Positions 7,927 to 64,000 of a DNA stretch of 64,000 nt are shown here, piece by piece. The notes below the pieces were generated by a model. The model saw nothing but the letters and a program-made list of their open reading frames with translations, searched no databases and was not told the origin of the DNA. The first letter of the stretch is position 1, and every line of letters starts with the position of its first letter. This DNA is from Trueperaceae bacterium (lineage in GTDB: Bacteria > Deinococcota > Deinococci > Deinococcales > Trueperaceae), in the NCBI GenBank assembly GCA_034520945.1, contig JAXHNB010000001.1, positions 224,001 to 288,000 of the forward strand, in the 5' to 3' direction. The position numbers and the translations under genes were made by a program.

Positions 7927-8627
7927 AGCCGCGAGTACAGCCACTCGGGCGTGAAGCGCAGCAGGTAGTTGTTCAGGCGTGTGTACGTGCCGGTCACCAT
8001 CAGCACGCCGGCCACCACCAGCAGGCTGCCGGCGACGCGTTCCACCCACGGCATCCAACCGCGCACGCGGCGCGACATCCGCAGGAACGGCTCCAACGCC
8101 AGCGACGCCAGCAGGAACGGCACGGCCAGCCCGGCGGAGTACACCGCCAGCATGGTCACTCCCTGCCCGAGCGTCGCCTGGGCGCCCGCCATGGTGAGGA
8201 TGCCGCCCAGCACCGGCCCGATGCAGGGGGTCCAGCCCGCCGCGAACGCCATGCCCAGCAGCACGGCGCCCCATGGGGTGGTGGCGTCGTGGCGGGCCTG
8301 AACGCGGGTGTCGCGCATCAGCCACGGCAGACGAATCACGCCCAGCATCACCAGCCCGAACAGGATCACCAGCACGCCGCCCACCAGCGTCAGCTCGCTC
8401 CGATTGGCGCGCAGCAGCGAACCGAGCGCCGAGGCGGACGCCCCCAGCGCGATGAACACCAGTGAGAACCCCAGCACGAACAGCACGCTGTTCCGGATCA
8501 ACAACGCGCGGCCGGAGGCTCCGCTGCCGCCGACGTACGCCAGGTACGACGGCACCAGCGGCAGGACGCACGGCGACAGGAACGACAGCACGCCCGCCGA
8601 GAAGGCGAGGGTCAGCGTCGGCGTCAC
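7923..8627 (-). CDS. ccdA: cytochrome c biogenesis protein CcdA
   Basis: SFLSPCVLPLVP and GWTPCIGPVL motifs; GTG at 8627. Confidence 0.92.
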   Translation of the reverse strand: MTPTLTLAFSAGVLSFLSPCVLPLVPSYLAYVGGSGASGRALLIRNSVLFVLGFSLVFIALGASASALGSLLRANRSELTLVGGVLVILFGLVMLGVIRLPWLMRDTRVQARHDATTPWGAVLLGMAFAAGWTPCIGPVLGGILTMAGAQATLGQGVTMLAVYSAGLAVPFLLASLALEPFLRMSRRVRGWMPWVERVAGSLLVVAGVLMVTGTYTRLNNYLLRFTPEWLYSRL

Positions 8628-8750
8628 CAGCGGGCCACCAGGTCGATCGGAGCGAGGGAAGGGCAATGGACGGGCATCATGGACGAGTATCGAACGTATC
8701 GCGTCCACCGTGGCGATCATGTCGGACATTTGTCCTGAGCGGCGTGGCGT

Positions 8751-8824
8751 GGGGCGATCGTACGGGCGACCTCGGGCGTGCGCTGGGGTGGGGGCGATCG
8801 CGCGGGCGACCTTTGGGCGTGCGC
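8751..8824. repeat. imperfect direct repeat, two copies of 33-34 bp
   Basis: ggggcgatcgtacgggcgacctcgggcgtgcgc (8751-8783) and ggggcgatcgcgcgggcgacctttgggcgtgcgc (8791-8824). Confidence 0.75.
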
Positions 8825-8841
8825 GCGTTTTTCTGCCGATG

Positions 8842-8859
8842 TGCGCCACATGTGGCGCA
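8842..8859. promoter_or_regulatory. perfect 18-bp palindrome, candidate operator
   Basis: tgcgccacatgtggcgca in the divergent ccdA/msrA intergenic region. Confidence 0.4.
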
Positions 8860-9031
8860 TCGCTCGCGTGCCTCCTTGCGTTTCGGCCCGTAGGGCGCTC
8901 GTCAGGGACGTCGAAATTCGCCCCGAACGCGAGGATGCGGAATATGCACCGTCGCCTGCAGGCGGGCGCGTTGGTACAGGCGGCCCGTCACGTCACGCCC
9001 CTCGCCCCGGCGTGGGCCGTAGCATGGGGGT

Positions 9032-9586
9032 ATGGACGAGAACCAATCGACGCGAGCGACCGCGACCCTCGGCGGCGGCTGTTTCTGGTGCCTGGACGCC
9101 GTGTATCGCCACGTGGAGGGCGTGACGAACGTGACCAGCGGCTACGCGGGCGGGCACGTGGAGAACCCCACCTACCAGCAGGTCTGCACGGGTCGGACGG
9201 GGCACGCCGAGGTGGTGCAGGTCGAATTCGACCCCTCCGTGGTGTCGTACCGGGACCTGCTCGGCATCTTCTTTTCGGTGCACGATCCCACCACCAAGGA
9301 CCGGCAGGGGGCGGACGTGGGGCCGCAGTACCGCTCCCTCGTGTTGGCCGAAGACGACGCGCAGGAGCGGACCGCCTACGACGTCATCGCGGAGGTGGAG
9401 CGCGAAGGCGTCTGGGACGCCCCGATCGTGACCGACGTGGCGCGTCTCACCGCCTTCTACCCGGCCGAGCCGTACCACCAGAACTTCTTCACGAACTACC
9501 CGGAGCAGGCCTACTGCGCGGCCGTGATCGCGCCCAAGGTGGCGCAGTTCCGGCACCGCTTCGCGGACCGTCTGAAGACCGCCTGA
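9032..9586 (+). CDS. msrA: peptide-methionine (S)-S-oxide reductase
   Basis: GGGCFWC, TGHAEVVQ, HDPTT..RQG.DVG.QYRS, AEPYHQ. Confidence 0.96.
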   Translation: MDENQSTRATATLGGGCFWCLDAVYRHVEGVTNVTSGYAGGHVENPTYQQVCTGRTGHAEVVQVEFDPSVVSYRDLLGIFFSVHDPTTKDRQGADVGPQYRSLVLAEDDAQERTAYDVIAEVEREGVWDAPIVTDVARLTAFYPAEPYHQNFFTNYPEQAYCAAVIAPKVAQFRHRFADRLKTA

Positions 9587-9715
9587 ACGGCCTCCAGGCG
9601 TCGTGGACGTTTCGGCCGCGCGGGGGGACGCGCGCCGGGCGTGCGCGTGGACAGGGGGCCGCGCCGTGGGTAGGATGGGCGCCGTCAGCTTCGTTTCCGG
9701 AGGAGGAGATACCCC

Positions 9716-10747
9716 ATGAACACCCGATGGTTGCCGTCCTTGTTGCTGGTTCTGGCCGTGTCGTTCGCGGTTGCGCAGGATACCCACGGCGTCGAACCGC
9801 TGGACCCGCCCGAGACCGTGCGCGTGGCGTACGTGCCGATCATGAAGTTCGCCACCATGTACGTCGCCGAGGAGCGCGGCCTGTTCGAGAAGTACGGCCT
9901 GGACCTCGAGATCGACCGTGTCTCGTCGGGCACCGAAGCGATCGCGTTCTTGACCCAGGGACAGATCGACGTGGGCGGCATCGCCATCGTCACCAGCCTG
10001 TGGAACGGCTGGAACGAAGGGCTCGACATCCGCATCATTGCGCCCGGCGCGCTGGAGCCGTTCGAGGACAGCCCCACCAAGTTCATGGTGCGCAGCGACC
10101 TGATGGCGTCGGGCGAGGTCGAGGAGATCGCCGACCTGGAGGGCCGCACCGTGGCGTTGGCCGGTGGGCCCGGCTCCGGCGGCGAGTACCTGGCGACCAA
10201 GGCGCTGGAGCGAGGGGAATTGACCATCCGCGACGTGCAGATCCAGCGCATCAACAACGCCGACATTCCCGGCGCGTTCGAGGCCGGCACCATCGACGCG
10301 GCGCTGCTCGGGTCGCCGTACGCCGACCAGGCGCAGGACGCCGGCACGGCCGAGCCCATCGCCGAGGACCTGGTGCCGGGCCTGATGACGGTGGCGTTCG
10401 TCGGCTCGGGCAACTTCGTGGAGAACCGGCCCGAAGTGGCGGAGCGCTTCGTGCTGGCGCTGACCGAAGCGGCCCGCATGATGCAGGGCGAGGACTACCT
10501 GGCCGAGGAGAACCTCGCGGCCTACCTGCGGTACGTCAACTCGACCGAGGAGGCGCTGCGCTCGGGCCGGCCGGTGGTGTACGACCCCAACGTGGAGCTG
10601 CCGCTGGACGGGCTCGCGGACGTGGAGCGCGTCCACCGCGAGAACGGCCGGACGGATTACGAGGAACCGATCGATCTGGAGGCGGTGGTGGACACCCGCT
10701 TCACCGAGTTCGCGCGCGAGGTGCTTGGCTCTCAGCCGCTCGAGTGA
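9716..10747 (+). CDS. NitT/TauT (SsuA/THI5-like) ABC substrate-binding protein
   Basis: Signal peptide; YVAEERGLFEKYGL, ADLEGRTVA; ggagga RBS. Confidence 0.85.
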   Translation: MNTRWLPSLLLVLAVSFAVAQDTHGVEPLDPPETVRVAYVPIMKFATMYVAEERGLFEKYGLDLEIDRVSSGTEAIAFLTQGQIDVGGIAIVTSLWNGWNEGLDIRIIAPGALEPFEDSPTKFMVRSDLMASGEVEEIADLEGRTVALAGGPGSGGEYLATKALERGELTIRDVQIQRINNADIPGAFEAGTIDAALLGSPYADQAQDAGTAEPIAEDLVPGLMTVAFVGSGNFVENRPEVAERFVLALTEAARMMQGEDYLAEENLAAYLRYVNSTEEALRSGRPVVYDPNVELPLDGLADVERVHRENGRTDYEEPIDLEAVVDTRFTEFAREVLGSQPLE

Positions 10748-50866: not shown

Positions 50867-51246
50867 TCAGCGGGCGACGTTCCATGCCAGCACGACGACC
50901 ACGACTCCGACCAAGCCCCGACCAAGCCCCAGACGAGCCAGTTCGGCCGGGCCCTTGCGCCCTGGCGGCCCGATCCGTGCGGCGTACCCGCCGGCGGGAT
51001 CTCCACGCCGCCTGCCGGAACGTCGGGCGTCCGGTCGACCACCGGCGTGCCCGCCACCCAGTGCAGATAGCCCGCGTCGCCCGGCGTCAGCTCGTCGCTC
51101 CAGGCGTACGCGTGGGACTCCTCGACCTCGAAGGTGCGGCCGGTCCGGTCCGAGCGCCACTCCTGTATGTGCGCCCCTCCCTCCGCGGTGCGGTCCGACC
51201 GCACGTAGCGAACCGCCCAGACGTCGGGATCACGTCGCGAACTCAT
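50867..51246 (-). CDS. small hypothetical protein with probable C-terminal TM (likely frameshift)
   Basis: MSSRRDPDVWAVRY...; hydrophobic LVGVVVVVLAWNVAR in the adjacent frame. Confidence 0.4.
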
Positions 51247-51544
51247 CCCCCGAGTGTAGCGCCGTGCGCGATCCTCGCCGGTCCCTGCGCCAGCCTCGAC
51301 GACGCGGCCCATCACACTAAGACCACCGCCAGCACGCTCGCGCCCGCCTGCCAGGCGATGTAGCGCGCGTGCATGGCATCCAGCGGGTAAAGCGTCCGAC
51401 ATCGCCGCCCGCCCCCGGTCGTTACCCTACGAAACGTAATTGCACGCCGGCACGCTCCGCGCTCATCGGTCGACCATCGAGGCGCCCGAGGCCCACCCGG
51501 GCCCCATGCCGTGCCGCGTGCCCCTCGGAAGGGAGGAGTTTTCC

Positions 51545-52924
51545 ATGACGCTCGCATCCATGCGAACGACCCGCATCCCAACTCTCCGCCTCCTCGCAGC
51601 CCTACTGCTGAGCGTGGCGGTGACCGGCCTCGCCCACGCCCAGCAAGGGGGCGAGTCCGAAGACGTCGTCGCCCTCGAGGCCGTGGCCGACGGCTTCAAC
51701 TCGCCCGTGCAGCTGGCGTCGCCGCCCGATGACCCGCGCCGCTTCGTGGTCGACCGTGTCGGCGCGATCTACCTGCTGCACGAGGATGGCAGCGTGGCCG
51801 ACACGCCGTTCCTGGACCTCCGCGACGAGATCGTCGAGCTGCAGGACGGCTTCGACGAGCGTGGCCTGCTGGGCCTGGCGTTCCACCCCGACTTCAGCGA
51901 GAACGGGCGCTTCTTCGTGTACTACAGCGCTCCGCTGCGGGACGCCGCGCCGGACGACTGGGACCACACCGCCTACGTCTCCGAGTTCAAGACCGCCGCG
52001 CCCGAAGAGGACGACGCTCCGCGCGGCTCGACGAACACGGCCGACCCGAACACCGAGCGTGTGCTGATGGCCATCGATCAGCCCAACTTCAACCACGACG
52101 GCGGCACCCTGGACTTCGGGCCCGACGGGTACCTCTACATTGGGCTGGGCGACGGCGGCAACGCCGATGACGCCGGCCTTGGACACCAGCCGATGGGCCA
52201 CGGGCAGGACACCACCTCGCTGCTCGGCAACATCCTGCGGATCGACGTGGACCGCGGCTGGCCCGGCTACGCCGTGCCCGAAGACAACCCGTTCGTGGGT
52301 GACCCGACCCGGCCGAACGAGATCTACTCCTGGGGTTGGCGCAACCCCTGGCGCATGAGCTTCGACGCCGCCGGCAACGGCGACCTGTACGTCGGCACCA
52401 ACGGGCAGAACCTGTGGGAGGCCGTCTACCGCATCCGTGAACCCGGCAACGCCGGCTGGAACATCCTCGAAGGCACGCACTGCTTCGATCCGGACGCCCC
52501 GAACACCACGCCGGCCAGCACGGCCTGCGACACGGTCGGCCCGCAGGGCGAACCGCTGAAGCTGCCGGTCATCGAGTACCCGCATCCCGGCAACCAAGGC
52601 GACTACGAGCATGCCGGCATCTCCGTCGTCGGCGGCTACGTCTACCGCGGCGACGACATCCCGGCGCTGCAGGGCCGCTACGTGTTCGGCGACTGGAGCC
52701 TCGGCTTCGGCGAGCCGCAGGGTCAGCTGTTCGTCAGCACGCCGAATGCGTCCCACACCGAGGGCGGCACCTGGGCGCTCGAGCGGTTGGACGTCCTGGA
52801 CAGCTACATCCTCGGGTTCGGGCAGGACAGTGAGAACGAGCTGTACGTGCTGACCACGGAGAGCACCGGCCCCACCGGCTCCACCGGCGCCGTGCACAAG
52901 CTGGTCCCGGCGGACGCCGAGTAA
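51545..52924 (+). CDS. PQQ-dependent sugar dehydrogenase (GSDH family), exported
   Basis: ERGLLGLAFHPDF, NHDGGTLDFGPDGYLY..GDGG, GWRNPWR; ggagga RBS. Confidence 0.9.
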   Translation: MTLASMRTTRIPTLRLLAALLLSVAVTGLAHAQQGGESEDVVALEAVADGFNSPVQLASPPDDPRRFVVDRVGAIYLLHEDGSVADTPFLDLRDEIVELQDGFDERGLLGLAFHPDFSENGRFFVYYSAPLRDAAPDDWDHTAYVSEFKTAAPEEDDAPRGSTNTADPNTERVLMAIDQPNFNHDGGTLDFGPDGYLYIGLGDGGNADDAGLGHQPMGHGQDTTSLLGNILRIDVDRGWPGYAVPEDNPFVGDPTRPNEIYSWGWRNPWRMSFDAAGNGDLYVGTNGQNLWEAVYRIREPGNAGWNILEGTHCFDPDAPNTTPASTACDTVGPQGEPLKLPVIEYPHPGNQGDYEHAGISVVGGYVYRGDDIPALQGRYVFGDWSLGFGEPQGQLFVSTPNASHTEGGTWALERLDVLDSYILGFGQDSENELYVLTTESTGPTGSTGAVHKLVPADAE

Positions 52925-52940
52925 CCCAGCGATCCCGCGT

Positions 52941-52976
52941 TCGGCACCCCGCCCGCATCTTGCGGCGGGGTGCCGA
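52941..52976 (+). terminator. hairpin between the GSDH paralogs
   Basis: tcggcaccccgcc...ggcggggtgccga; no U-tract. Confidence 0.45.
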
Positions 52977-53009
52977 CCTGTCCCGCGACGACGAACGAAA
53001 GGACCACGA

Positions 53010-54764
53010 ATGGACGGATGCACCTTCGCTCGCCTGCGCAGGTGGGGGATCGTGGCTGCGGCCGCGATCCTCGCCTTCGCGGGCGCCCAGTCGCCCCCGA
53101 ACGTCGAGGCGGAGCTGGTCGTCGACGGCCTCACCTCCCCCGTGCAGCTGACCGCCCCACCGGATGACCCCCGCCGCTTCGTGGTCGAACAGACCGGTCA
53201 GATCCGCATCCTCCAGGAGGACGGCACCCTGGCGGACACCCCGTTCCTGGATCTCAGCGACCGCATCGTGACGTTGCGCGACGGCTTCGAGGAACGCGGC
53301 CTGTTGGGCCTGGCGTTCCACCCCGAATTCGCGGACAATGGGCGGTTCTACGTGCACTACAGCGCGCCGCTCCGGGAGCGCGCGCCCGACGGCTGGGACC
53401 ACACCGCCCGCATCAGCGAGTTCCGGGTGCCGGCCGACACACCTGATGAGGCCGACCCGAACTCCGAACGCGTGCTACTCCGCGTCGATCATCCCAACCG
53501 CAAGACCAACGCCGGCGCGCTGGCGTTCGGGCCCGACGGCTACCTCTACGCCGCGATCGGCGAGGGTGGCGGCGCGCACGGCATCGGCGAGGTCGCCTTC
53601 GGGGCGCTGGAAGTGCCCGAACGCGGCAACGTCTGGGACGCGCTGGCGCAGGACGTGCACACGCCCTACGGCAAGATCCTGCGATTGGACGTGGATCACG
53701 GTTGGCCCGGCTACGCCGTGCCTGAGTCCAACCCGTTCGTCGGCACGCCCGGGATGGACGAGATCTACGCCTGGGGGTTCCGCAACCACTACCGCATGGC
53801 GTTCGATCACGAGGGTGACGGCGCGCTCTACGTCGCCGCCGTCAGCGAGTCGATCTCGGAAGCGGTGTATCGCGTCGATGGGCCCGGCAACTACGGTTGG
53901 CCCATCCGCGAGGGCACGCATTGTTACGACCGCCAGGCACCGCTCGATCCGCCCGAGGACTGTTCTCGCTATGGGCCCGAGGGGTGGCGCATTCACGATC
54001 CCGTGGTGGCGTACTACAACGTGAACGTCGCCGAGTCCGACATCGACGCCGAGCCGCGCGGCACCGCCGTGGTCGGGGCGCAGGTGTACCGCGGTGACGA
54101 CATCCCCGAGCTGCGCGGACGCCTGCTCGTCGCCGACTACTCGCAGAACCCCCAGGAACCGAGCGGCACGGTGTTCGTGGCTGGGCCCGAGGGCGACGTG
54201 AGCGCGACCTGGCCGCTACGGCAGCTCGTGCAGGTCGACGCCCGCGCGCAAGGTCTGGGCGTGGACGTGGAGGGAGAGGCGTACCTGCTGACCCGTGAAG
54301 CGTTCGCCCCCAGCGGCGATACGGGACGCATCTACCGGCTCGTGCCAGCCAGCGACGACGGCGACGAGGCAGGAGCGGGCGCGTCCGATGGGCAGGACGC
54401 CGGCTCGGCCGACGCCGCCGCAGCGGGATTCTCGTTCACCGCCGCCCAGGCTGAGCAGGGCTCGAGCGTCTACGACGAGCAATGCCAGAGCTGCCACGCA
54501 GACGACCTTCGGGCGCAGGGGCCGTTCCCGCCCCTGACCGGTTCCGAATTCTTCGGCTCCTGGGAGGGCCGTCCCGTCAGCGAGATGTACGCCTTCATCC
54601 GAGGCAACATGCCGCTGGGATCGGCCGGCTCGCTGTCCGATGAAGCGTATGCCGAGGTGATGGCCTACTGGTTGCAACGGCACGGCTACCAGGCCGGCGA
54701 GGCGCCCCTTCCTGGCGACCCCGCCGCCCTGCCGGAGGACGTACCGGTCGAGGACCGCCGTTGA
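53010..54764 (+). CDS. GSDH-family paralog fused to C-terminal cytochrome c
   Basis: ERGLLGLAFHPEF, AFGPDGYLY, GFRNHYR; CQSCH at 54483-54497 and NMP axial Met. Confidence 0.88.
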   Translation: MDGCTFARLRRWGIVAAAAILAFAGAQSPPNVEAELVVDGLTSPVQLTAPPDDPRRFVVEQTGQIRILQEDGTLADTPFLDLSDRIVTLRDGFEERGLLGLAFHPEFADNGRFYVHYSAPLRERAPDGWDHTARISEFRVPADTPDEADPNSERVLLRVDHPNRKTNAGALAFGPDGYLYAAIGEGGGAHGIGEVAFGALEVPERGNVWDALAQDVHTPYGKILRLDVDHGWPGYAVPESNPFVGTPGMDEIYAWGFRNHYRMAFDHEGDGALYVAAVSESISEAVYRVDGPGNYGWPIREGTHCYDRQAPLDPPEDCSRYGPEGWRIHDPVVAYYNVNVAESDIDAEPRGTAVVGAQVYRGDDIPELRGRLLVADYSQNPQEPSGTVFVAGPEGDVSATWPLRQLVQVDARAQGLGVDVEGEAYLLTREAFAPSGDTGRIYRLVPASDDGDEAGAGASDGQDAGSADAAAAGFSFTAAQAEQGSSVYDEQCQSCHADDLRAQGPFPPLTGSEFFGSWEGRPVSEMYAFIRGNMPLGSAGSLSDEAYAEVMAYWLQRHGYQAGEAPLPGDPAALPEDVPVEDRR

Positions 54765-54807
54765 CGCGCCTCGCGCGCCGGCCGTAAGGCCGGGCCGTAG
54801 GCGATGC

Positions 54808-55611
54808 CTACGGCGTGTCCAGCACCGTCACGTCGTCCCCCACGCGCAGCGTCCCCACCCCGTCGTGCAGCAGGTTCTGCCCGAACAGGACGTTGCCGCC
54901 GCGCTTGCGGGTCCGGTTCAGCGTCCGCAGCGGTTCCGGCCCCGCCTCCAGCGTGTCGGGATGCAGGGTCGGGACCACGCAGCGTGCGCAGGGCTTGGCG
55001 ACCCGGAACGCCACCTCGCCGATCCGGATTCGGGTCCAGCCGTCCTCCGCGTAGGGGGCCGCGCCCGACGCCACCAGGTTGGGGCGAAAGCGCACCATCT
55101 CCAGCGGCGCGTCCAGCTGGCGGTTCAGCTCGTCCAACGAGGCGCTGCCGATCAGGTGGAACGGATAGCCGTCCGCGAAGGCGACCCGGTCGTCCGCGTG
55201 GGCGTAGGCGGGGTCGACCCGGCGCGCGCCGTCCGGCGGGAAGACCACCAGTCGGTGCCCCTCGCCCAACACCCGGCCGATCCATTCGTCTGCGCTTCGG
55301 CCGCACGACCAGGCCGTCACGGGGTCGTTCCACACGGTCACGGCGACCTCGCGTGCCGGCGTGGGCGGGCGCGGCAGGTCCAAGTCCGGCAGGCCCGGCG
55401 CGGACAATCGCAGTTGCTCGGCATGAAGCGTGGGCGTGATGCGGCCCAGGCGGGGGTCCTCGCGTTGGCTGCGAAAGCGGCCGCGTCGGTCCACTACCAT
55501 CCAGCGCCGGTCGTCCCGTAGGCCGGTGCGCACCACCTCCGCCGCGTTCAGCGGTACGGCGCGCCCCGACTTCAGCGGGTAGGCGTACAGGGCGCTCAGC
55601 CGCACCGTCAC
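54808..55611 (-). CDS. MOSC domain protein (YcbX/mARC-like, no ferredoxin domain)
   Basis: YPLKS, DRRWMVV, FADGYP, RFRPNLV, KPCARC, FGQN. Confidence 0.9.
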   Translation of the reverse strand: MTVRLSALYAYPLKSGRAVPLNAAEVVRTGLRDDRRWMVVDRRGRFRSQREDPRLGRITPTLHAEQLRLSAPGLPDLDLPRPPTPAREVAVTVWNDPVTAWSCGRSADEWIGRVLGEGHRLVVFPPDGARRVDPAYAHADDRVAFADGYPFHLIGSASLDELNRQLDAPLEMVRFRPNLVASGAAPYAEDGWTRIRIGEVAFRVAKPCARCVVPTLHPDTLEAGPEPLRTLNRTRKRGGNVLFGQNLLHDGVGTLRVGDDVTVLDTP

Positions 55612-55616
55612 CGCGT

Positions 55617-57185
55617 TCAGCCGGCCGACGCGGCTGCGTCGGCGTTGGTGCGCCGGACGGTCTCGTCGCGCAGGCGCGCCAGCGCGGGCGAGAGCGAGAC
55701 GTGGTAGCGGTGCGGGCGCAGGATGCGGCGCACGCCGGGGTAGTGCCGCGCCAGGTCGTTGCGGCACCGCTCGCGCAGCGTCTCCAGCGGCGCCTCGGCC
55801 GCGGTGCGGGCGCCGTCCTGGAAAGCGGGGCTCAGCAACGGTTCGACATCGGAGACGTCGCTGCGCGCGAGGGTGCGGGTGGTGTCGACCTCGCGGGGGT
55901 GATGGGCCACCAGGTCGTCGCCGCCGCGGCGGGGGTCCTCGCCTGCGAGGGTGACCAGGTCGACGGTGGCGTTTCCGAGGGCGTCGTACACGCGCCACAC
56001 GCGCTTGTCGCCCGGCACCAGCGCCTTCGACGGCGTCTCGGACAGCTTGACGGCCGGCAGCCAGCCGTCATCGCCGCGGATCTGCACCAGCTTGTATACG
56101 CCGTCCAGGGCGGCGTCGCCTTCGGAGGTGATCAGGCGGGTCCCGACGCCGTACGCCAGGCGGGAGAGCAGCCGGCCCGCGTCGACGCCGTACGCGCTGG
56201 CCTCCTCCGTGATCTGCGTGCGGATCTGCCACAGGGTGAACTCGTCCAGCTCGTTGGACAGCACGATGGCGGCGTCCTCGAAGCCGGCGTCGTTCAGCTG
56301 GCGGGCCGACTGGATCGCCAGGTGCGCCAGGTCGCCCGAGTCCAGCCGCACGCCGATGGGTTCGTGCCCCCGTTGGCGCAGGCGTTCGAAGGTCCGGATC
56401 GCGTTGGGGATGCCGGAGTCGAGCGTGTCGACGGTATCGACCAGCAGTAGGCAGTCGTCTGGGAACGCCTCGGCGTAGGCGTCGAAGGCGCCGGCCTCGC
56501 CCATGCCGAGCGCCATGAACGCCTGCACCATCGAGTGCGCGTGCGTGCCGGCCGGGCGCGTGCCCAACGCGAACGCCAGGCCCGTGTTCGAGGTGGCGTC
56601 GGCCCCGCCGATCAGGGCGGCGCGCGAGCCGGCGTGGACGCCGCGCTCGTGCCCGCGCCGCATGCCGAAGTCGATCACGGCGCCGCCGTGCGCCGCTTGC
56701 ACCAGCCGCGCCGCCTTCGTCGCGATCAGGGTGGGGTAGTTGAGGTGGTTCAGCAGCGACGTCTCCAGCAGCTGCAGCCCCGCCAGCGGGCCCCGCACGA
56801 TCGCGATGGGGGCGCCGGCGTGCACCACGCGCCCCTCCGGCACGGCGGTGACGGTGACGTCCGCCCCGGCGGGGCGGTCCTGCAGCCACGCCAGGAAGTC
56901 GTCGTCGAACAGGCGCCGCCCGCTACGGCCCGTCACGGCGAGCAGATACGCCAGGTCGCGGCGTTCGAAGCGCGTCCCCTCCAGCCACTCCAGGAACCAG
57001 GCCAGCCCGGCCGTGACGGCGTAGCCGGCCTGATGCCCGCCGTAGTCCGGGTAGGAGCGGAAGAAGTACTCGAACTGGGCCGGGCGCTCGTGCATGCCCT
57101 TCCGGAAGTACAGCTGGGCCATGGTGAGTTGGTACATGTCGGTGAACAGCGCGCCTTGCGCGGTCCGCCAGTCGGTCTCGTTCAT
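55617..57185 (-). CDS. pncB: nicotinate phosphoribosyltransferase
   Basis: TDMYQLTM, DFGMRR, GTHAHS, LVDT.DT, GVRLDSGDL, GVYKL. Confidence 0.93.
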   Translation of the reverse strand: MNETDWRTAQGALFTDMYQLTMAQLYFRKGMHERPAQFEYFFRSYPDYGGHQAGYAVTAGLAWFLEWLEGTRFERRDLAYLLAVTGRSGRRLFDDDFLAWLQDRPAGADVTVTAVPEGRVVHAGAPIAIVRGPLAGLQLLETSLLNHLNYPTLIATKAARLVQAAHGGAVIDFGMRRGHERGVHAGSRAALIGGADATSNTGLAFALGTRPAGTHAHSMVQAFMALGMGEAGAFDAYAEAFPDDCLLLVDTVDTLDSGIPNAIRTFERLRQRGHEPIGVRLDSGDLAHLAIQSARQLNDAGFEDAAIVLSNELDEFTLWQIRTQITEEASAYGVDAGRLLSRLAYGVGTRLITSEGDAALDGVYKLVQIRGDDGWLPAVKLSETPSKALVPGDKRVWRVYDALGNATVDLVTLAGEDPRRGGDDLVAHHPREVDTTRTLARSDVSDVEPLLSPAFQDGARTAAEAPLETLRERCRNDLARHYPGVRRILRPHRYHVSLSPALARLRDETVRRTNADAAASAG

Positions 57186-57778
57186 GATCCCTCCGGGGGG
57201 TCGTGGCGCGCGTACAGCCCGTGCGTGTGCAGGTAGGCCGCCACGGCGTCGGGCACGAGGTAGCGAAGGCTCCGGCCGGCCGCGACGCGGCTGCGGACCA
57301 GCGTGCCCGACACGCCGAACGGCACGGTCTCGATCTTGGTCGCCGCCCGCGCGAACCGTTCGGGCGGGGGCGGCGCCTCCGTGCCGCGCCGGGGAAACAC
57401 CACCATCTGGACGGCTCGGATGAGCGCCTCGGCGCGGTGCCACGTCTCGATCTCGGCCCAGGCGTCGGCCCCGATCAGGTAGGCGAAGGTCGCTTCGGGG
57501 TGGCGTTCCTGCAGGTCCACCACCGTGTCGTACGCGTAGGACGGGCCGCTGCGCCGGATCTCGTCGGCGCGGGCGCGGAACGCCGGGTGGTCCTGTACCG
57601 CCAGGCGGGTCATCTCGAGCCGGTCGAGCGGCGAGGCGTCGGCGGGCTTGTGCGGCGGGTCGCCGGCCGGCAGGAACCACACCTCGTCCAACGGCAGTGC
57701 CTCGCGCGCCTGCTCCGCCATCAGCAGGTGTCCCATGTGCGGCGGGTCGAAGCGCCCCCCGAACAGCCCGACGCGCAT
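57182..57778 (-). CDS. nadD: nicotinate-nucleotide adenylyltransferase
   Basis: GLFGGRFDPPHMGH, PPHK, LIGAD, SGTLVR, YLVP. Confidence 0.93.
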   Translation of the reverse strand: MRVGLFGGRFDPPHMGHLLMAEQAREALPLDEVWFLPAGDPPHKPADASPLDRLEMTRLAVQDHPAFRARADEIRRSGPSYAYDTVVDLQERHPEATFAYLIGADAWAEIETWHRAEALIRAVQMVVFPRRGTEAPPPPERFARAATKIETVPFGVSGTLVRSRVAAGRSLRYLVPDAVAAYLHTHGLYARHDPPEGS

Positions 57779-59927
57779 CAGGCGTCTCCGCCGGGCACGT
57801 CGGGGACGGCCGGCCCGCCGTCTCGCGTCGGCGCGCCCTCGAGGTCGCGCACGCGAGCACGGATGGCGCGGAACTGCCACGACCAGGAGGGATCGATCAG
57901 GAACGGCCGCAGGTCGAAGCGGTGGTCCTCCGGGGCGTACGCCTCGGCGTGATAGGCAGGCGTCGACACGGTGGTCTTGTGGCGGTGCGTGGCGTAGGCG
58001 CGGAAGAAGCGCTCGACCTTGTCGGCCACGCGTGAGGGGGGTGTGTCGGTCCAGGTCACGGCCAGGCGCTCGAACGCCTCCAGTGGGCCGTAGCGCTCGA
58101 TCTTGCGGAGCCGGCCCAGCTCGCCGAGCTCGGCGTAGGTGAGGCCCATCTCGTCCTCGTCGCGCTGCGCCCCCTCGCCGTCCTCCGGGGTCAGCTCCGC
58201 GCTGGGGGCCGCGCCCAGAATGTCGTCCAGCGCCGTGTAGCCCAGCGTGTCGCGCGCCCATGCCAGGAAGCGCCGCAGATCCACCTTCGAGATGCCACCG
58301 ATCGGGTTCAGGTCCGCGGACGAGGTGTCGTACTTGGTGAGGTAGCCCGTCAGGGTCTCGTCCACGTTGGCGGTGCCGACCACCAAGCGCGGGCCCCGCA
58401 CGCCCCGCAGGCTGGGGACGCGCTGCGCCAGCAGGTAGGACGCCACCAGGCGGCTGCGGGCCTGCAGGTTCTGCAGCGCCAGGTCGTCCGCCCGGCTGCC
58501 CCCTTCGCTCCGGAAGCGGAGGGGGCGTCCGTGCCGGGAGGGGCGATGGTGCCCGACACGTCCGCCAGCGACGCGACGGCGTCGTCCAGCGTCACCTCCA
58601 GATGGTCCGCCCCGATCTGTTCGGCCAATGCGCGGGCCCGCGCGCGGCTGGCGTCGGTCGACACCTTCGTGGCCAGGTACGCGGTCGTGACCAGGCGTCC
58701 CGCCAGCGCGCGCGGATCGTCGGGGGGATCCTCCCCGGCCGCCAGGCCTAGGACCGCCCGCAGGTCATGGATCACACCGCGCCGGCCGGCGGCGACCTCG
58801 CGCGCCAGCAGGCGGCACATCGAGCCCAGGATCGTCGCCACCGCCGCCGAGTCGCTGCCCCCCGACAGCGCCAGGAAGAACCCGCCGGCCCCGCTGCGGC
58901 GCAGGTAGTCCCACAACCAGCAGGCGGGGCCAAGGGCGATCTCCTCCTCGACCCGGTGCGTGTGGAGCGCGCGGGGCGGGGTGGCGGCGCGGTGGCGGGC
59001 CGCGTCCACCAGGCGCAGGCCGGTCCGCACGCGCGGGTAGGGCTCGGCCATCGACGCTTGCCGCATGCGGGTGGCGCGCGCGCCGCGGAGCGAGCGCACC
59101 TGGTCCAGGTCCACCTCGGCAGTGATCACCTCGACGTCGCGCGGCGAGAACTGCGACCCTTGCGCCACCACGCCGCCGTTCACCACGATCATGGCGCCGC
59201 CGTCGAAGTACAGGCGCCCCCCGTCGCAGCCCTGCTGGTTGGCGTACAGGTACACGCCGCCGAACCCTTCGGTGGCGGCGCGAATGCGGTGCAGCCGGGT
59301 CTCGAGCTTGCGGAGCTCGTGGTGCGACCCGCTGCCGTTCGCGAAGATCTCGACCCCGTCCAGCCCCAGATCGACGTGGGGGGCGTGGGGCGCGTACAGC
59401 TCTTCGCAACTCTCAGAAGCGACCACCGTGTCGTCGGTGGACACCACCGCGTCGCCGATCGGGACGGTGTCCTGCCCGGTCCGCGCCCGGATGATGGGCG
59501 GCAGCGTGAACGGCTCGGTGCGGCGCGCGTGCCGCCAGGCGGCGAACCAGCGGCCCTCGCGGTAGTTGCCGTCGTCCGCCAGCTCGCGTTTGGGGCGGAC
59601 CAGCAGCACCCGGCGGTCCAACAGGAACACGCGGGCGTTGTAGCGCACCCCGCGGTGCATGAGCGGCATGCCCACGTCGCACAGGATGCCGTCGGTGAGA
59701 TCGTCCGCCAGGAGCTCGGCCAGAACCTCGAACGAGTGCCGCACGGTGTCGCGCTCCAGGAAGTGGTCCTCGCAGCCGTAGCCGGGGATCTCGAGTTCCG
59801 GCCCCAGCCGGAAGCGCGCCCCGCGCGCCTTGGCCTCCTCGATCGAGGCGCGGATGCGGGTCAGGTTGCCGCCGAAGTCAAGCGCCCACTGGTCCAGGTT
59901 GCAGGTCGCGACCGTCGCGACGTTCAC
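57778..59927 (-). CDS. nadE: glutamine-dependent NAD+ synthetase, eukaryote-like (frameshift ~58520)
   Basis: Nitrilase-fold domain (GPELE, RPK, SCEE) plus synthetase domain (LSGGSDS, LALQNLQAR, GYLTKYD.SSAD.NPIG). Confidence 0.92.
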
Positions 59928-60532
59928 GTGCCGCGCGGTTCGAAGCGAAGATCGGCCGCGCGCACCACCTGGCCCAGGTACAGGAAGGTGAGCTGCCGCA
60001 GGGTGGCGTGCAGGTCGAAGTCGCTCAACGCCGAGACGCCGTCCTCGACCAGCGCCACGTCGTACCACCGCAGCGCCGCGGAGGCGGCGGTGTGCTGCAC
60101 GCAGATGTTGGCGACCGTGCCCAACACCACCACGTAGTGAACACCCCACACCCGCAGCTGGTGATCCAGTGGGGTGCCGTAGAAGCCGTCGTAGCGGGGC
60201 TTTTGCATCACCGGCTCCTGCGGTTTGGGGGTGAGCTCCGGCACGATCTCGGCGCCCCACGAGCCGCGGACGGCGTGGCGGGGCCAGACGCGGAACTCCG
60301 GATCGTCCTGCTCGTGCCAGTCCTGGGTGTACGCCACACGGGCGCCGGCCTGGCGGGCGCGGTCCATCACGTCGCGGATCACGGGGACGGTGCTTGCTGC
60401 GCTGGGCACGTGCAGGGCGCCGCCCTCGGCCACGAAGTCGTTCTGCATGTCGACCGTGATCACCGCGGTGCGCTCCGCGGGCAGGCGCAGCCCGTCGCTA
60501 CGGGGGATGTCGGGCACCTCGACGTGCGGCAT
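59924..60532 (-). CDS. pncA: nicotinamidase-like cysteine hydrolase (isochorismatase family)
   Basis: VDMQNDF, QDWH..WPRH, KPRYDGF, GTVANICV; first gene of the NAD salvage operon. Confidence 0.75.
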   Translation of the reverse strand: MPHVEVPDIPRSDGLRLPAERTAVITVDMQNDFVAEGGALHVPSAASTVPVIRDVMDRARQAGARVAYTQDWHEQDDPEFRVWPRHAVRGSWGAEIVPELTPKPQEPVMQKPRYDGFYGTPLDHQLRVWGVHYVVVLGTVANICVQHTAASAALRWYDVALVEDGVSALSDFDLHATLRQLTFLYLGQVVRAADLRFEPRGT

Positions 60533-60605
60533 GGAAACCTCCTCACACAAAGGGTTCGTTCATTCCCGTCAGGCTACCGCGCGACCGTCCTCCAGCGCGT
60601 TTCGC

Positions 60606-60992
60606 TCATCGCGGCGGCGTGGGCGGGTCGTCCTCGCCCTCGGGCGCGTCGAAGTCGCCGTCGGTGCGATCGTACTTCCCCTTCAGCTCGTCGATGCCGG
60701 TGCGTTCCCATAGCGACACGCCGTCGTAGTAGGCGGCGCGGCCCAGCACGTGGGCGGCCACCGGCGCCGTCAGCAGCAGGAACAGGAATACCAGCAGCGC
60801 CTTGGTGGTGGTCGCGGTGGCGCCGAACAGTACGGCGGTGGCGGCCAGGATCAGGCCCGCCCCCAGCGTGCCGGCCTTGGTGGTGGCGTGCATGCGCATG
60901 AACAGGTCGGGGAAGCGGACGGCGCCCAGCGCGGAGACCAGCACGAAGAAGGTCCCGAGCACGAGAAGCAGGATGGCCAATGCCTCAGTCAC
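60606..60992 (-). CDS. mrpG: Mrp Na+/H+ antiporter subunit G
   Basis: RFPDLFMRMHATTKAGTLG, LTAPVAAH. Confidence 0.93.
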   Translation of the reverse strand: MTEALAILLLVLGTFFVLVSALGAVRFPDLFMRMHATTKAGTLGAGLILAATAVLFGATATTTKALLVFLFLLLTAPVAAHVLGRAAYYDGVSLWERTGIDELKGKYDRTDGDFDAPEGEDDPPTPPR

Positions 60993-61284
60993 GGTCGGAC
61001 CTCTGTCGCTCGATGAAGCGCGCGAACGCGATCGTGCCCAGGAAGGAGATAAGCGCCAGCGCGATGGCGGCGTCCAACAGCACGGCGGTCCGCGTGGCGA
61101 TGGCGACCAGGGCGATGACCGACACCGCCATCAGGCCGATCATGTCCAGCGCCATCACGCGGTCGGGCAGGCTGGGACCGCGGATCACGCGGTAGAGGGC
61201 CAGCGCGATCGACACCGCGACGCCCGTCAACGCCAGGTAGGCCGTCACGTCCAGCAGGGCGAAGGACGGGTCGAACAGGATCAC
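60985..61284 (-). CDS. mrpF: Mrp antiporter subunit F
   Basis: GPSLPDRVMALD, FLGTIAFARF. Confidence 0.93.
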   Translation of the reverse strand: MILFDPSFALLDVTAYLALTGVAVSIALALYRVIRGPSLPDRVMALDMIGLMAVSVIALVAIATRTAVLLDAAIALALISFLGTIAFARFIERQRSDRD

Positions 61285-61754
61285 CGGAACACCTCCAGGA
61301 TGCGGCGTTCGAAGCTCGACTTGATGTCACGCACCAACCGCTCCGGGTCGTCCGCGAACATGGCGTGTACGTAGAGGCAGCTCTTGTCCGCGGCCACGTC
61401 GATCGAGAGGGTGCCGGGCGTGAGCGAGATCAGGTTGGCCAGCAGCGTGATCTGCGCGTCGGTGGTCAGGTCCAGCGGGACCGCGATCACGGCCGGCTGA
61501 GCACGCAGGCGCGGGCGGAGCACGTCCACCGCGACGCGCACGCTGGACAGGGCCAACTCGCGCAGGAAGAACAGGAACAGGCCCACGACCCGCACGAAGC
61601 GCACGGCGTAGCGCCGGTCGCCCAGCGCCCCGCCGACGAAGTGCAGGACCACCATGCCGACCCCGAAGCCGATCACGAGGTTCACCTCGGACAGCGATCC
61701 GGTGGCGAACGCCCACATGAACGCCAGCACCAGGTTCAGGCCGAACAGGCTCAT
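61281..61754 (-). CDS. mrpE: Mrp antiporter subunit E
   Basis: LANLISLTPGTLS, LYVHAM, FERRI. Confidence 0.93.
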   Translation of the reverse strand: MSLFGLNLVLAFMWAFATGSLSEVNLVIGFGVGMVVLHFVGGALGDRRYAVRFVRVVGLFLFFLRELALSSVRVAVDVLRPRLRAQPAVIAVPLDLTTDAQITLLANLISLTPGTLSIDVAADKSCLYVHAMFADDPERLVRDIKSSFERRILEVFR

Positions 61755-63268
61755 GGCGCCGCCTCCAGGAACGCTTGGGCGGCCTCGTCGCCGAGCACGG
61801 CGCGGACGTAGCCTTGCGGGTTCATCAGTTCGTCCCCCGCGGCTTGGGACAGCGCCAGGAACGGCCCGCTCCAGAACCCGATCAGCAGGGTCACCGCGGC
61901 CAACCCCGCGACCGGCGCGATCATCGCCCACGGCGGGCGCGGGCCCACCTCGCGCCCCTCCGGGGCGGGCTTCCAGAACGCGGCCTGCCAGATCTTGGTC
62001 ATGGAGTAGATGGTCAGCAGGCCCACCACCAGCGCCACCGCCACCAGGGCCCAGTTGCCGCTCTCGACCCCCGCGAGCAACACGGCCAGCTTGGCCCAGA
62101 ACCCCGACAGCGGCGGGAAGCCGGCCAGCGAGAAGGCCGGCACCAGGAACAACGCCGCCAGCAACGGCCGGTGCCGGTACAGCCCGCCCAAGCGGTCGAG
62201 CTCGAAGCTGCCGCCGGCGTGCCGCGCCAGGCCCGACACGAAGAACAGGTTCGCCTTGACGATGATGTGGTGCACCAGGTAGAACACCGCCCCCGCCAGG
62301 GCGAACGGCGTGTACAGCGCCAGTCCCATGATCATGTAGCCGATCTGGCTGATGATGTGAAACGACAGGATCTTGCGGAACTCGTTCTGCGCGGCGGCGC
62401 CCAACACGCCGGTCAGCATGGTGAACCCCGCCAGCCACGCCAGGACCCCGTGCGTCCACCCCACGTCCTGCGTGAACAACAGCGTGAACGCCCGCATCAG
62501 CGCGTACACGCCGACCTTGGTGAGCATGCCGGCGAAGATCGCCGACACCGCCACCGGCGGGGTGTGGTACGAGGCCGGCAACCAGAAGAACAGCGGGAAG
62601 ATCGCCGCCTTGATCCCGAACGCCACCAGGAACAACATCGCCAGCACCGTGGCCAGCGCGTCCGGGACGTGGTGCAACGCCCCGGCCAGGTCGGCCATGT
62701 TCAGAGTGCCGGTCGCGCCGTAGGTGAGGCCGATCGCGGCGAGGAACAACAGCGACGACACCAGGTTCACCGCGACGTACTTGAGGCCGCCCTCCAGCTG
62801 CGCGCGCCGATTGCCGAGCGTCAACAGCGCGAACGACGCGATCAGCAGCACCTCGAACCAGACGTACATGTTGAACAGGTCGCCGGTGAGAAAGGCGCCG
62901 TTGATGCCCGCGAGGAGCACCTGGAACAGCGGGTGGTACCCCAGCGCCTCGCGGGCCGGATCGATGTCGCGGAGCGCGTACACGGCCGTCGCGAACGCCA
63001 TCACCCCGCTGATGGCCGTCATGATGGCGGACAGGTGGTCGGCCACCAGGCTGATGCCGAACGGCGCGGGCCAGCCCCCCGCCTGCATCACCTGGATGCC
63101 GTCCTGCGACACGCGCGCCAGCAGCGCCAGCGTCAGCAGCAGCAACGCCGCGCTGGCCCCGGTCGAGATCCAGCGTTGGGCACTGCGGCGGCCGTACAGC
63201 GCGAAGCCCAGGGCGGCCGCCGCCAGCGGAAGGGCGACGGGGGAGACCAGCAGCCAGTTCACGGCCAC
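61751..63268 (-). CDS. mrpD: Mrp antiporter subunit D
   Basis: GDLFNMYVWFEV, KAAIFPLFFWLP, TKVGVY, HHIIVK. Confidence 0.95.
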   Translation of the reverse strand: MAVNWLLVSPVALPLAAAALGFALYGRRSAQRWISTGASAALLLLTLALLARVSQDGIQVMQAGGWPAPFGISLVADHLSAIMTAISGVMAFATAVYALRDIDPAREALGYHPLFQVLLAGINGAFLTGDLFNMYVWFEVLLIASFALLTLGNRRAQLEGGLKYVAVNLVSSLLFLAAIGLTYGATGTLNMADLAGALHHVPDALATVLAMLFLVAFGIKAAIFPLFFWLPASYHTPPVAVSAIFAGMLTKVGVYALMRAFTLLFTQDVGWTHGVLAWLAGFTMLTGVLGAAAQNEFRKILSFHIISQIGYMIMGLALYTPFALAGAVFYLVHHIIVKANLFFVSGLARHAGGSFELDRLGGLYRHRPLLAALFLVPAFSLAGFPPLSGFWAKLAVLLAGVESGNWALVAVALVVGLLTIYSMTKIWQAAFWKPAPEGREVGPRPPWAMIAPVAGLAAVTLLIGFWSGPFLALSQAAGDELMNPQGYVRAVLGDEAAQAFLEAAP

Positions 63269-63666
63269 GTCGCGTCCTCGTCCTCTTCGGGTCCGTCCAG
63301 GCCAGGCACCGGCCGTGGGTCGGCCATGCGTTCCGCCATGCGTTCGGTCTTGACCGTGCCGAGTCGCTCGTAGGTCCGCAGCAGCAGCACCAGCGTGAAC
63401 ACGGTGAGCCCGAAGCTGATCACGATCGCGGTGAGGATCAATGCCTGCGGCAGCGCGTTGGCGGCCCCGTCGGGGGGGACGGACGCGCCCGCGGGCACCA
63501 ACGGCGGCACCTCTTTTGTCAGGCGGCCCAGCACGAAGATCGCGACGTTCACCGAGCCGGACATCAGGATGAGCCCGAACACGAAGCGCAGCATGTTGCG
63601 TTGCATCACCAGGTACAGGCCGGAGGCGAAGAGCGCCCCGACCACGATCGCGACGGGGACCTCCAT
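63259..63666 (-). CDS. mrpC: Mrp antiporter subunit C
   Basis: LPQALILTAIVISFG. Confidence 0.93.
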   Translation of the reverse strand: MEVPVAIVVGALFASGLYLVMQRNMLRFVFGLILMSGSVNVAIFVLGRLTKEVPPLVPAGASVPPDGAANALPQALILTAIVISFGLTVFTLVLLLRTYERLGTVKTERMAERMADPRPVPGLDGPEEDEDATWP

Positions 63667-64000
63667 CAGTGTTCCTCCAACGCGAACAACATGGTGAGCA
63701 CCACCCCGATCACCACCAGGTACACCCCGACGTCGAACAACAGCGGCGTGCTGAGCTTGAGTTCCAACCCGCCCAGGTCGCGGATCCACCACAGCCCCGT
63801 CAGGAACTCCCGGCCGGCCAGGGCGGCCAGCAGGCCCGCCCCCGCGGCGGCGGAGAGCCCGAGGCCGATCACCGCTTGCGGCGTCACCCGAAGCAGCTGG
63901 GCGGCCGCCGGGGCGCCGTAGGCGATGGCGTACAAGGCCAATGCCGCCGCCGCCACGAGCCCGCCGATGAAGCCGCCGCCCGGCAGGTCGTGCCCGCGGA
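63666..64000 (-). CDS. mrpB: Mrp antiporter subunit B domain (5' end outside window)
   Basis: RGHDLPGGGFIGGL, FDVGVYLVV. Confidence 0.88.
   Translation of the reverse strand, partial: RGHDLPGGGFIGGLVAAAALALYAIAYGAPAAAQLLRVTPQAVIGLGLSAAAGAGLLAALAGREFLTGLWWIRDLGGLELKLSTPLLFDVGVYLVVIGVVLTMLFALEEH

Follow-up and report, generated by a model that had tools for sequence, protein, structure and literature searches.

A predicted NADSYN1-type NAD+ synthetase in a Trueperaceae salvage operon and its bacterial relatives close to the eukaryotic enzymes

The window analyzed here is a stretch of 64,000 nucleotides from a Trueperaceae bacterium (assembly GCA_034520945.1, positions 224001-288000 of contig JAXHNB010000001.1, here C1), and its subject is nadE, a minus-strand gene (57778..59927; GTG start at 59927, TGA end at 57778) predicted to encode a two-domain glutamine-dependent NAD+ synthetase of the NADSYN1/Qns1 type. 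The gene is the second of five minus-strand frames that follow one another in series with overlapping stops and starts. The first encodes an isochorismatase-family hydrolase (59924..60550, with the ATG at 60532 as a possible alternative start; Pfam Isochorismatase, 6.2e-40), probably the nicotinamidase PncA. Downstream of nadE lie nadD, for nicotinate-nucleotide adenylyltransferase (57182..57778; NCBIfam NF000840, 168 bits against a cut-off of 150, and TIGR00482, 164.5 bits against 112), pncB, for nicotinate phosphoribosyltransferase (55617..57185; NCBIfam NF006695, 528.8 bits against 469; Pfam NAPRTase_N and NAPRTase_C), and, last of the set, a gene for a MOSC-domain protein (54808..55620; Pfam MOSC_N, 2.5e-25, and MOSC, 2.1e-23). 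The stop of the isochorismatase-family gene and the start of nadE overlap as GTGA, the stop of nadE and the start of nadD as TGATG, and nadD and pncB as ATGA; pncB and the MOSC gene share four bases according to their coordinates. The G+C content is 0.73-0.74 in the nadE region and 0.70-0.74 in the flanks.

As assembled, the nadE translation comes in two pieces, an N-terminal one of 469 residues and a C-terminal one of 251, with the frames switching near 58520. The N-terminal piece matches the Pfam CN_hydrolase domain (PF00795, 3e-33, residues 5-281) and the C-terminal piece the NAD_synthase domain (PF02540, 2.2e-17). In phmmer searches of PDB sequences, both pieces matched human NADSYN1 (6ofb_A), the N-terminal one with an E value of 9.1e-161 (query residues 4-457 on chain residues 6-458) and the C-terminal one with 5.6e-74 (4-235 on 466-699, of 707), with the NadE of Cytophaga (3ilv) at 6.2e-40 and 9.2e-12 and that of Mycobacterium tuberculosis (3dla) at 2.1e-15. 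The NCBIfam models for bacterial two-domain NadE were not reached: the N-terminal piece scored 107 bits with NF002730 (cut-off 473) and 96 with NF010588 (cut-off 479), the C-terminal piece scored 26 bits (cut-off 479), and a whole homologue from Poribacteria also fell below both cut-offs, with 118.8 and 114.9 bits.

The switch of frames was examined in contigs (Logan) of four public runs from three studies, aligned to window positions 57600-60100: X1 and X2, which derive from one salt-pan sample that is perhaps the assembly's own source, X3, from a sediment study, and X5, from a microbialite study. In all four runs, the single contig covering the site carries an extra G behind 58520, that is, six G in place of the five read on the plus strand at 58521-58525, and the added G yields a 2151-base frame of 716 codons with its sole stop at the end. 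The X1 contig (5764 bases) spans the aligned interval and matches the window over 2501 bases with no other letter changed and one gap, the extra G. The X3 and X5 contigs differ from the window at 15 and 89 positions, respectively, and thus come from related strains. The nadE/nadD junction is crossed by the X1, X3, and X5 contigs, and the junction between the first gene and nadE by those of X1 and X5. It tells somewhat against this evidence that it consists of contigs rather than raw reads, that the library type is off record, and that X1 and X2 may represent the source sample. The apparent frameshift comes from one base that the assembly dropped from a homopolymer, so that a biological explanation is unneeded, and it is a warning with respect to other "pseudogenes" of the same assembly. 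A further length difference was seen at window position 57755, inside nadD, where one X2 contig is one base short, probably a contig error, since X1, X3, and X5 read as the window does.

When aligned with 21 other enzymes, the window enzyme keeps the glutaminase triad of Glu, Lys, and Cys in register with the eukaryotic and outgroup enzymes (the exception being a Vulpes isoform with C at the Glu column), as well as the PP-loop, LSGGSDS, and all three of Tyr123, Glu125, and His203 (human numbering). A published study describes Tyr123 and His203 as the residues conserved among eukaryotes, and Phe and Pro as those conserved among prokaryotes (PMC6946656); the window enzyme has the eukaryotic pair. 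In our alignment, the six other bacterial two-domain enzymes carry His or Phe at the Tyr123 site, and three of the six carry His at the His203 site, so that the latter alone does not discriminate. The GYLTKYD motif of the window enzyme is replaced in six plasmid-borne bacterial two-domain NadE by GYATMDGD, GYCTMDGD, GYVTMDGD, or GWCTY..GD. Human NADSYN1 (6OFB), matched over chain residues 6-458 and 466-699, agrees with the window enzyme in its length of about 700-716 residues and in the order of its domains, and shares with it the catalytic triad, the PP-loop, the GYLTKYD and AYHAE..RFDLRPFL motifs, and the Tyr123/His203 pair. Over the whole length, the window enzyme is 57-72% identical to members of its bacterial clade; the figure is 45-53% for eight eukaryotic enzymes known by name and 22-30% for the outgroups. 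Besides the identity of 45-53%, the window gene differs from those of the eukaryotic NADSYN1-type enzymes in that it lies in an overlapping bacterial operon.

Other bacterial two-domain enzymes stand farther away. Cytophaga hutchinsonii-type NadE (3ILV, with the Spirosoma, Hymenobacter, and Vibrio plasmid copies) have the same domain order and chemistry and form the nearest outgroup in the trees, but they are 28-30% identical to the window enzyme, lack several insertions of 3-7 residues found in NADSYN1-like enzymes, and carry His at the Tyr123 site and GY.TMDGD in place of GYLTKYD. The M. tuberculosis NadE (3DLA; NF002730) and the short form (NF010588) represent the same glutaminase-synthetase fusion and catalyze the same reaction, but the M. 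tuberculosis enzyme matched at only 2.1e-15, and its counterparts in Azospirillum and Prevotella share 22-23% identity with the window enzyme and have Phe at the Tyr123 site.

A preliminary description of this DNA, made from its letters alone, had given the place of the gene, its motifs, and the break at about 58520, all of which recur in the translation and frames. The GTGA and TGATG overlaps that it reported were read at the junctions, its remark on host-like G+C content agrees with the values for the gene and its flanks, and the contrast that it drew with other bacterial two-domain NadE holds at the GYLTKYD site of the six fetched enzymes. The frame repair that it proposed amounts to a single added G, giving the 716-codon frame, and the two junctions whose support it wished to see are both crossed, by contigs rather than by raw reads. 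Its claim of a match to the human and yeast enzymes "nearly residue for residue" is accurate for the motifs and too strong for the whole length, where identity to the eight eukaryotic enzymes is 45-53%. The likeness to yeast Qns1, which was not among the compared sequences, is presumed. The PDB matches, the junction-spanning contigs, and the gene order in congeners bear out its assignment of the gene to the NADSYN1/Qns1 type and to a genuine operon, as opposed to contamination.

The order of the first gene, nadE, nadD, and pncB is kept in all four gene-bearing congeners, two of whose loci end before the first gene; in two named Trueperaceae metagenome-assembled genomes, the first gene is followed by a gap and then by nadE and nadD. 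The isochorismatase-family neighbor is accordingly seen in two congeners and in these two metagenome-assembled genomes. By comparison, the 78 loci from other bacteria (77 from Poribacteria and Chloroflexota, one from an unclassified bacterium) showed no pncA-like, nadD, or pncB gene within ~6 kb of nadE. The NAD salvage operon around this nadE is an arrangement of Trueperaceae. Of the Preiss-Handler set (PncA, PncB, NadD, and NadE), NadD and PncB score above their NCBIfam cut-offs, and the first gene falls below that for PncA (61 bits, cut-off 174), which weighs against reading it as a nicotinamidase; that reading, which we regard as probable, is taken from the operon context. A salvage cluster with a NadE of a different type is present on the Vibrio parahaemolyticus replicon NZ_CP062152.1 (882 kb, filed as a plasmid), where a two-domain, Cytophaga-like nadE lies beside pncB and an adenylyltransferase gene.

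The host assembly (3.47 Mb in 10 contigs, 97% complete, 5% contamination, 71% G+C) has as its PF02540 matches only two duplicate nadE copies and GMP synthase; the third match, on contig C6, was considered as a second NadE and rejected, being the GMP synthase. The two nadE copies belong to a tandem duplicate of 20,287 bases (C1 274916-295200 and 295206-315488; 99.48% identity by self-BLAST), of which the first copy occupies 50916..64000 of the window as far as it lies within it. The copies differ at 105 positions in clustered patches, none of them between window positions 56942 and 62491; the nadE operon is therefore identical in the two and present twice in the assembly, with the same frame break in both. 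The duplicate probably represents two strain variants that the assembly placed in tandem, which may account for the 5% contamination figure. Judged by these profile matches, the window enzyme is predicted to be the host's only NAD synthetase. NadA (quinolinate synthase) was not found in the host genome, 97% complete as it is.

Going by the solved structure of the human homologue, the nitrilase-like domain at the N terminus, with its Glu-Lys-Cys triad, would hydrolyze glutamine, and the ammonia would travel along a tunnel inside the protein to the PP-loop domain at the C terminus (SGGSDS), where nicotinate adenine dinucleotide would be adenylated and then amidated to NAD+. Translation of nadE would be coupled with that of the genes for the PncA-like amidase, NadD, and PncB, and the overlaps among these genes suggest one operon for the whole nicotinamide-to-NAD (Preiss-Handler) route, with the nadE product performing the last step. 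Because quinolinate synthase was not found, the operon is probably the main NAD source of the cell and the main way in which the halophilic, Trueperaceae-like host makes NAD.

To place the enzyme among its relatives, we considered its distribution in bacteria. In a word-based search of 5.8 billion proteins, the best 120 matches listed, the window's own product aside, were 58-75% identical and mostly about 700 residues long, and the named organisms among the matches listed were Poribacteria, Chloroflexota, Anaerolineales, and, in the case of one fragment, Cellvibrionaceae. With one genome per species, at least 173 of 597 candidate stretches encode a relative, and the best 80 of these at least 173 comprise 56 from Poribacteria, 21 from Chloroflexota, two from Trueperaceae, and one unclassified. 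The NAD(+) synthases of Poribacteria and Chloroflexota (Anaerolineae, Caldilineaceae, Ardenticatenaceae, and Promineifilaceae) fall in the same clade as the window enzyme at 57-60% whole-length identity, but their loci lack the salvage operon neighbors seen in the window. That these proteins function as NAD(+) synthases is already known, and the databases name them so.

Whole-genome searches found the NADSYN1-like enzyme in 139 of 151 Poribacteria genomes. For an Anaerolineae carrier, the figures were one of 301 genomes in its phylum and one of 56 in its order, the carrier itself both times. Among 40 relatives of the host genome, strong matches were present in four of the 10 congeners and in none of the 30 others, and a search with the NF002730 profile in 150 further genomes of the phylum yielded no two-domain NadE, and hence no outgroup. 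Relatives in the host family have at least three other solutions: some carry a classic single-domain NadE, some a PRK00876-type enzyme, and in others no NadE was detected. One complete family member was considered as the source of a two-domain outgroup, but its NadE proved to be a single-domain PRK00876-type protein and was discarded. In all five other carrier genomes, which represent three phyla, the only strong NAD_synthase match is the homologue. The gene thus appears to be vertically inherited in Poribacteria and patchy in Chloroflexota and Trueperaceae, a pattern that fits transfer between bacteria, and it most likely reached Trueperaceae from another bacterium. Overall, we consider it likely, as the best explanation of the whole, that the window gene encodes an intact, working enzyme (EC 6.3.5.1) of the NADSYN1/Qns1 type that belongs to this bacterial clade. 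A divergent form occurs in two congeners (loci L007 and L008), in which the glutaminase Lys is lost (RPAR for RPKR) and the Cys region replaced, with the SGGxDS loop and the operon kept, and which form a long branch; this form, with its predicted dead glutaminase domain, is probably an ammonia-only enzyme.

The relationship of the bacterial enzymes to those of eukaryotes was studied in four trees, all computed with IQ-TREE under LG+C20+F+G4 by posterior mean site frequencies. Eukaryotic rows were drawn from cluster representatives and from a search that started with a red-algal enzyme; 17 are named (from red algae, a plant, apicomplexans, a ciliate, animals, and fungi) and three more come from eukaryote-only sources. 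Organism names were obtained by cluster look-up for 12 of 30 proteins, and Amoebozoa, Discoba, stramenopiles, and haptophytes are unsampled under a name. Six two-domain NadE from plasmid records, including those of Spirosoma, Hymenobacter, and Vibrio, served as outgroups. An initial FastTree had no true outgroup, since none of its 11 deep-branching cluster representatives passed the bacterial NadE cut-off and all were NADSYN1-like, so that its midpoint root was meaningless.

In the quick tree of 56 rows (chosen from 271), all NADSYN1-like rows were united with a support of 100, and the bacteria formed one branch (96) among the eukaryotes; in the quick tree of 38 rows, the bacteria again formed one branch (99) among the eukaryotes. 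In the approximately unbiased (AU) test on the 38-row set, monophyly of eukaryotes had a p value of 0.772, and the constrained tree was 7.75 log-likelihood units better than the free one. Careful trees were then built from a set of 30 rows, without the long-branch Penaeus, Myxobolus, Eimeria, Spirometra, Durotheca, Blepharisma, and Lankesteria sequences and one congener, and from a set of 34 rows, in which three metagenome sequences labeled eukaryotic by their neighbors and one sequence from a low-G+C contig were added. In the 30-row tree, the joint clade of bacteria and eukaryotes received 100/100, and bacterial monophyly 67/97, being present in 70% of bootstrap trees. In the 34-row tree, the eukaryotes plus the low-G+C-contig sequence were united at 78/94 and in 80% of bootstrap trees, the bacteria formed one branch in 18% of bootstrap trees, and Poribacteria were the weakly supported sister of the eukaryotes (38/93). 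The window enzyme lay inside the bacterial part of the joint clade: the careful trees grouped it with metagenome proteins at 100/100, and the quick trees added a congener to this group at 99-100 by the Shimodaira-Hasegawa-like approximate likelihood ratio test (SH-aLRT).

The joint clade of bacterial NADSYN1-like and eukaryotic enzymes, which is separated from the Spirosoma, Hymenobacter, and Vibrio enzymes at 100/100, is solid, and seven indel stretches of 3 to 7 residues are common to all NADSYN1-like rows relative to the near outgroup. The bacterial clade is the closest known prokaryotic relative of the eukaryotic enzyme. When the Chondrus enzyme was used as a query, the next matches after red algae were Chloroflexota and Poribacteria enzymes at 57-59%, and red-algal and green-alga-like enzymes are 58-63% identical to those of Poribacteria and Chloroflexota, about as similar as red-algal enzymes are among themselves. 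Inside the joint clade, the branching order of bacteria and eukaryotes shifts with sampling.

The five metagenome contigs whose neighboring genes were scanned comprise three that look eukaryotic (KTI12, cytosolic-type PheRS, ARID, and JmjC), one Chloroflexota-like contig that is 93% identical to locus L058, and one of low G+C content with an Rpb2-like gene. The last, Ga0075464_10000023 (39% G+C), carries an intact two-domain NADSYN1-like gene (7980-10193) 1.7 kb from the gene for a 1398-residue Rpb2-like subunit, next to large frames without Pfam matches; its NADSYN1-like gene groups with eukaryotes in the tree, and the contig is possibly derived from a giant virus.

Several histories could account for a eukaryote-like NAD synthetase in this genome. 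If the frameshift were real, the gene would be a decaying pseudogene and NAD would be made otherwise. This would agree with the same break in both assembly copies, with the two congeners that lack the glutaminase Lys and Cys, where selection on part of the enzyme seems relaxed in the genus, and with the many family members without any detected NadE. However, the contigs of four out of four runs carry the extra G, one of them being otherwise identical to the window over 2501 bases, neither another NadE nor NadA was found in the genome, and all catalytic residues are kept with no further stop, so that we regard decay as very improbable. If the gene had recently come from a eukaryote, or if eukaryotic DNA had been misbinned or misassembled into this genome, this would explain the high similarity to the human and yeast enzymes, which is all that speaks in favor of such an origin, but it is hardly credible given that the nearest relatives are bacterial (57-72% identity versus 45-53% for eukaryotes), that the gene has four-base overlaps with nadD and the pncA-like gene in an operon repeated in four congeners, that contigs from three studies bridge the junctions, and that the G+C content resembles that of the flanks. 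The eukaryote-to-bacterium transfer offered in the preliminary description finds no support for this bacterium: its gene is nested in bacteria at 100/100, the clade is present in 139 of 151 Poribacteria, and no analysis puts the clade robustly inside one eukaryotic group.

The more serious question concerns the clade as a whole. We hold the chances to be close to even that the bacterial clade is sister or ancestral to the eukaryotic enzymes and not derived from a modern eukaryote. The other relationship suggested in the preliminary description, a lineage sister to the eukaryotic enzyme, accordingly finds partial support, in the 100/100 joint clade, the AU p value of 0.77 for eukaryote monophyly, and the 80% bootstrap frequency. 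An ancient transfer in the opposite direction, from an early or stem eukaryote or an early alga, with fixation in Poribacteria and later spread to some Chloroflexota and Trueperaceae, whose own NadE was replaced, seems to us unlikely, yet a number of observations point toward it and correspondingly away from a bacterial ancestry. The free trees of the 56-, 38-, and 30-row sets place the bacteria as one branch (96-99 SH-aLRT) nested in eukaryotes beside red algae and the plant, and eukaryote monophyly occurs in only 37% of bootstrap trees of the 30-row set. The reading of a bacterial ancestry is also softened by the reversal of that order once three green-alga-like sequences were added, by an outgroup branch of 3.3-4.1 changes per column, and by unusual composition, for which the window row, among several others, was flagged in the 30-, 34-, and 38-row sets. 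The algal enzymes are as near to those of Poribacteria and Chloroflexota as red algae are to one another, and the enzyme type is found in every sampled eukaryotic group but is narrow and patchy in bacteria outside Poribacteria (one of 301 genomes, one of 56, and four of 10 congeners), as would be expected if bacteria were the recipients. Against ancient transfer from eukaryotes, the AU test does not reject monophyly of eukaryotes, the likelihood is higher for the constrained tree than for the free one, eukaryotes are monophyletic in 80% of bootstrap trees of the best-sampled (34-row) set, the nested position was never starred under bootstrap in the careful 30-row tree, and the alignment contains no indel joining the bacteria to a subset of eukaryotes. 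With the clade taken as sister or ancestral, the enzymes of Poribacteria, Chloroflexota, and Trueperaceae could, as a tentative proposal to which we give a little less than even odds, be the remnant of the lineage that gave the eukaryote ancestor its NAD synthetase. If this is true, a donor group about 55-62% identical replaces the ~30% identical relatives behind the derivation of "eukaryotic branch II from bacterial branch I."

That derivation stems from a survey of about 940 genomes, which describes Eukarya as a compact group and eukaryotic branch II as derived from bacterial branch I (PMC3376133). The genome table contains Chloroflexus and Herpetosiphon and does not contain Truepera, Anaerolinea, or Caldilinea (PMC3376133), and because of the absence of these three, the bacterial NADSYN1-like clade lies outside the sampling of this 2012 survey. 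No paper on the bacterial NADSYN1-like enzymes or their clade was found in full-text literature searches, which subscription journals largely escape, and the evolutionary position of the clade appears to be undescribed so far. The preliminary description had named, as the outcome contrary to its proposal, a broad and already described bacterial clade distant from Qns1/NADSYN1; the clade is indeed broad and bacterial, but it is close to NADSYN1 and without a description found in print.

The window adds no new biochemistry, and its value lies in a clade that is phylum-wide in Poribacteria and as near to algal enzymes as these are to one another. For evolution, the closeness of this clade to the enzymes of eukaryotes holds moderate interest: whether the eukaryotic NAD synthetase came from a bacterial donor or there was an early transfer in reverse is now testable by dense sampling. 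In addition, the bacterial enzymes offer intron-free prokaryotic stand-ins for human NADSYN1, which is reported to be the gene of a congenital NAD deficiency disorder (PMC10866660).

Directly upstream of the NAD operon, on the same minus strand, lies a further group of frames (60606-63268), which may specify an Mrp/Mnh-type multisubunit cation/proton antiporter; they are membrane-protein frames of 505, about 160, 99, and 128 residues.

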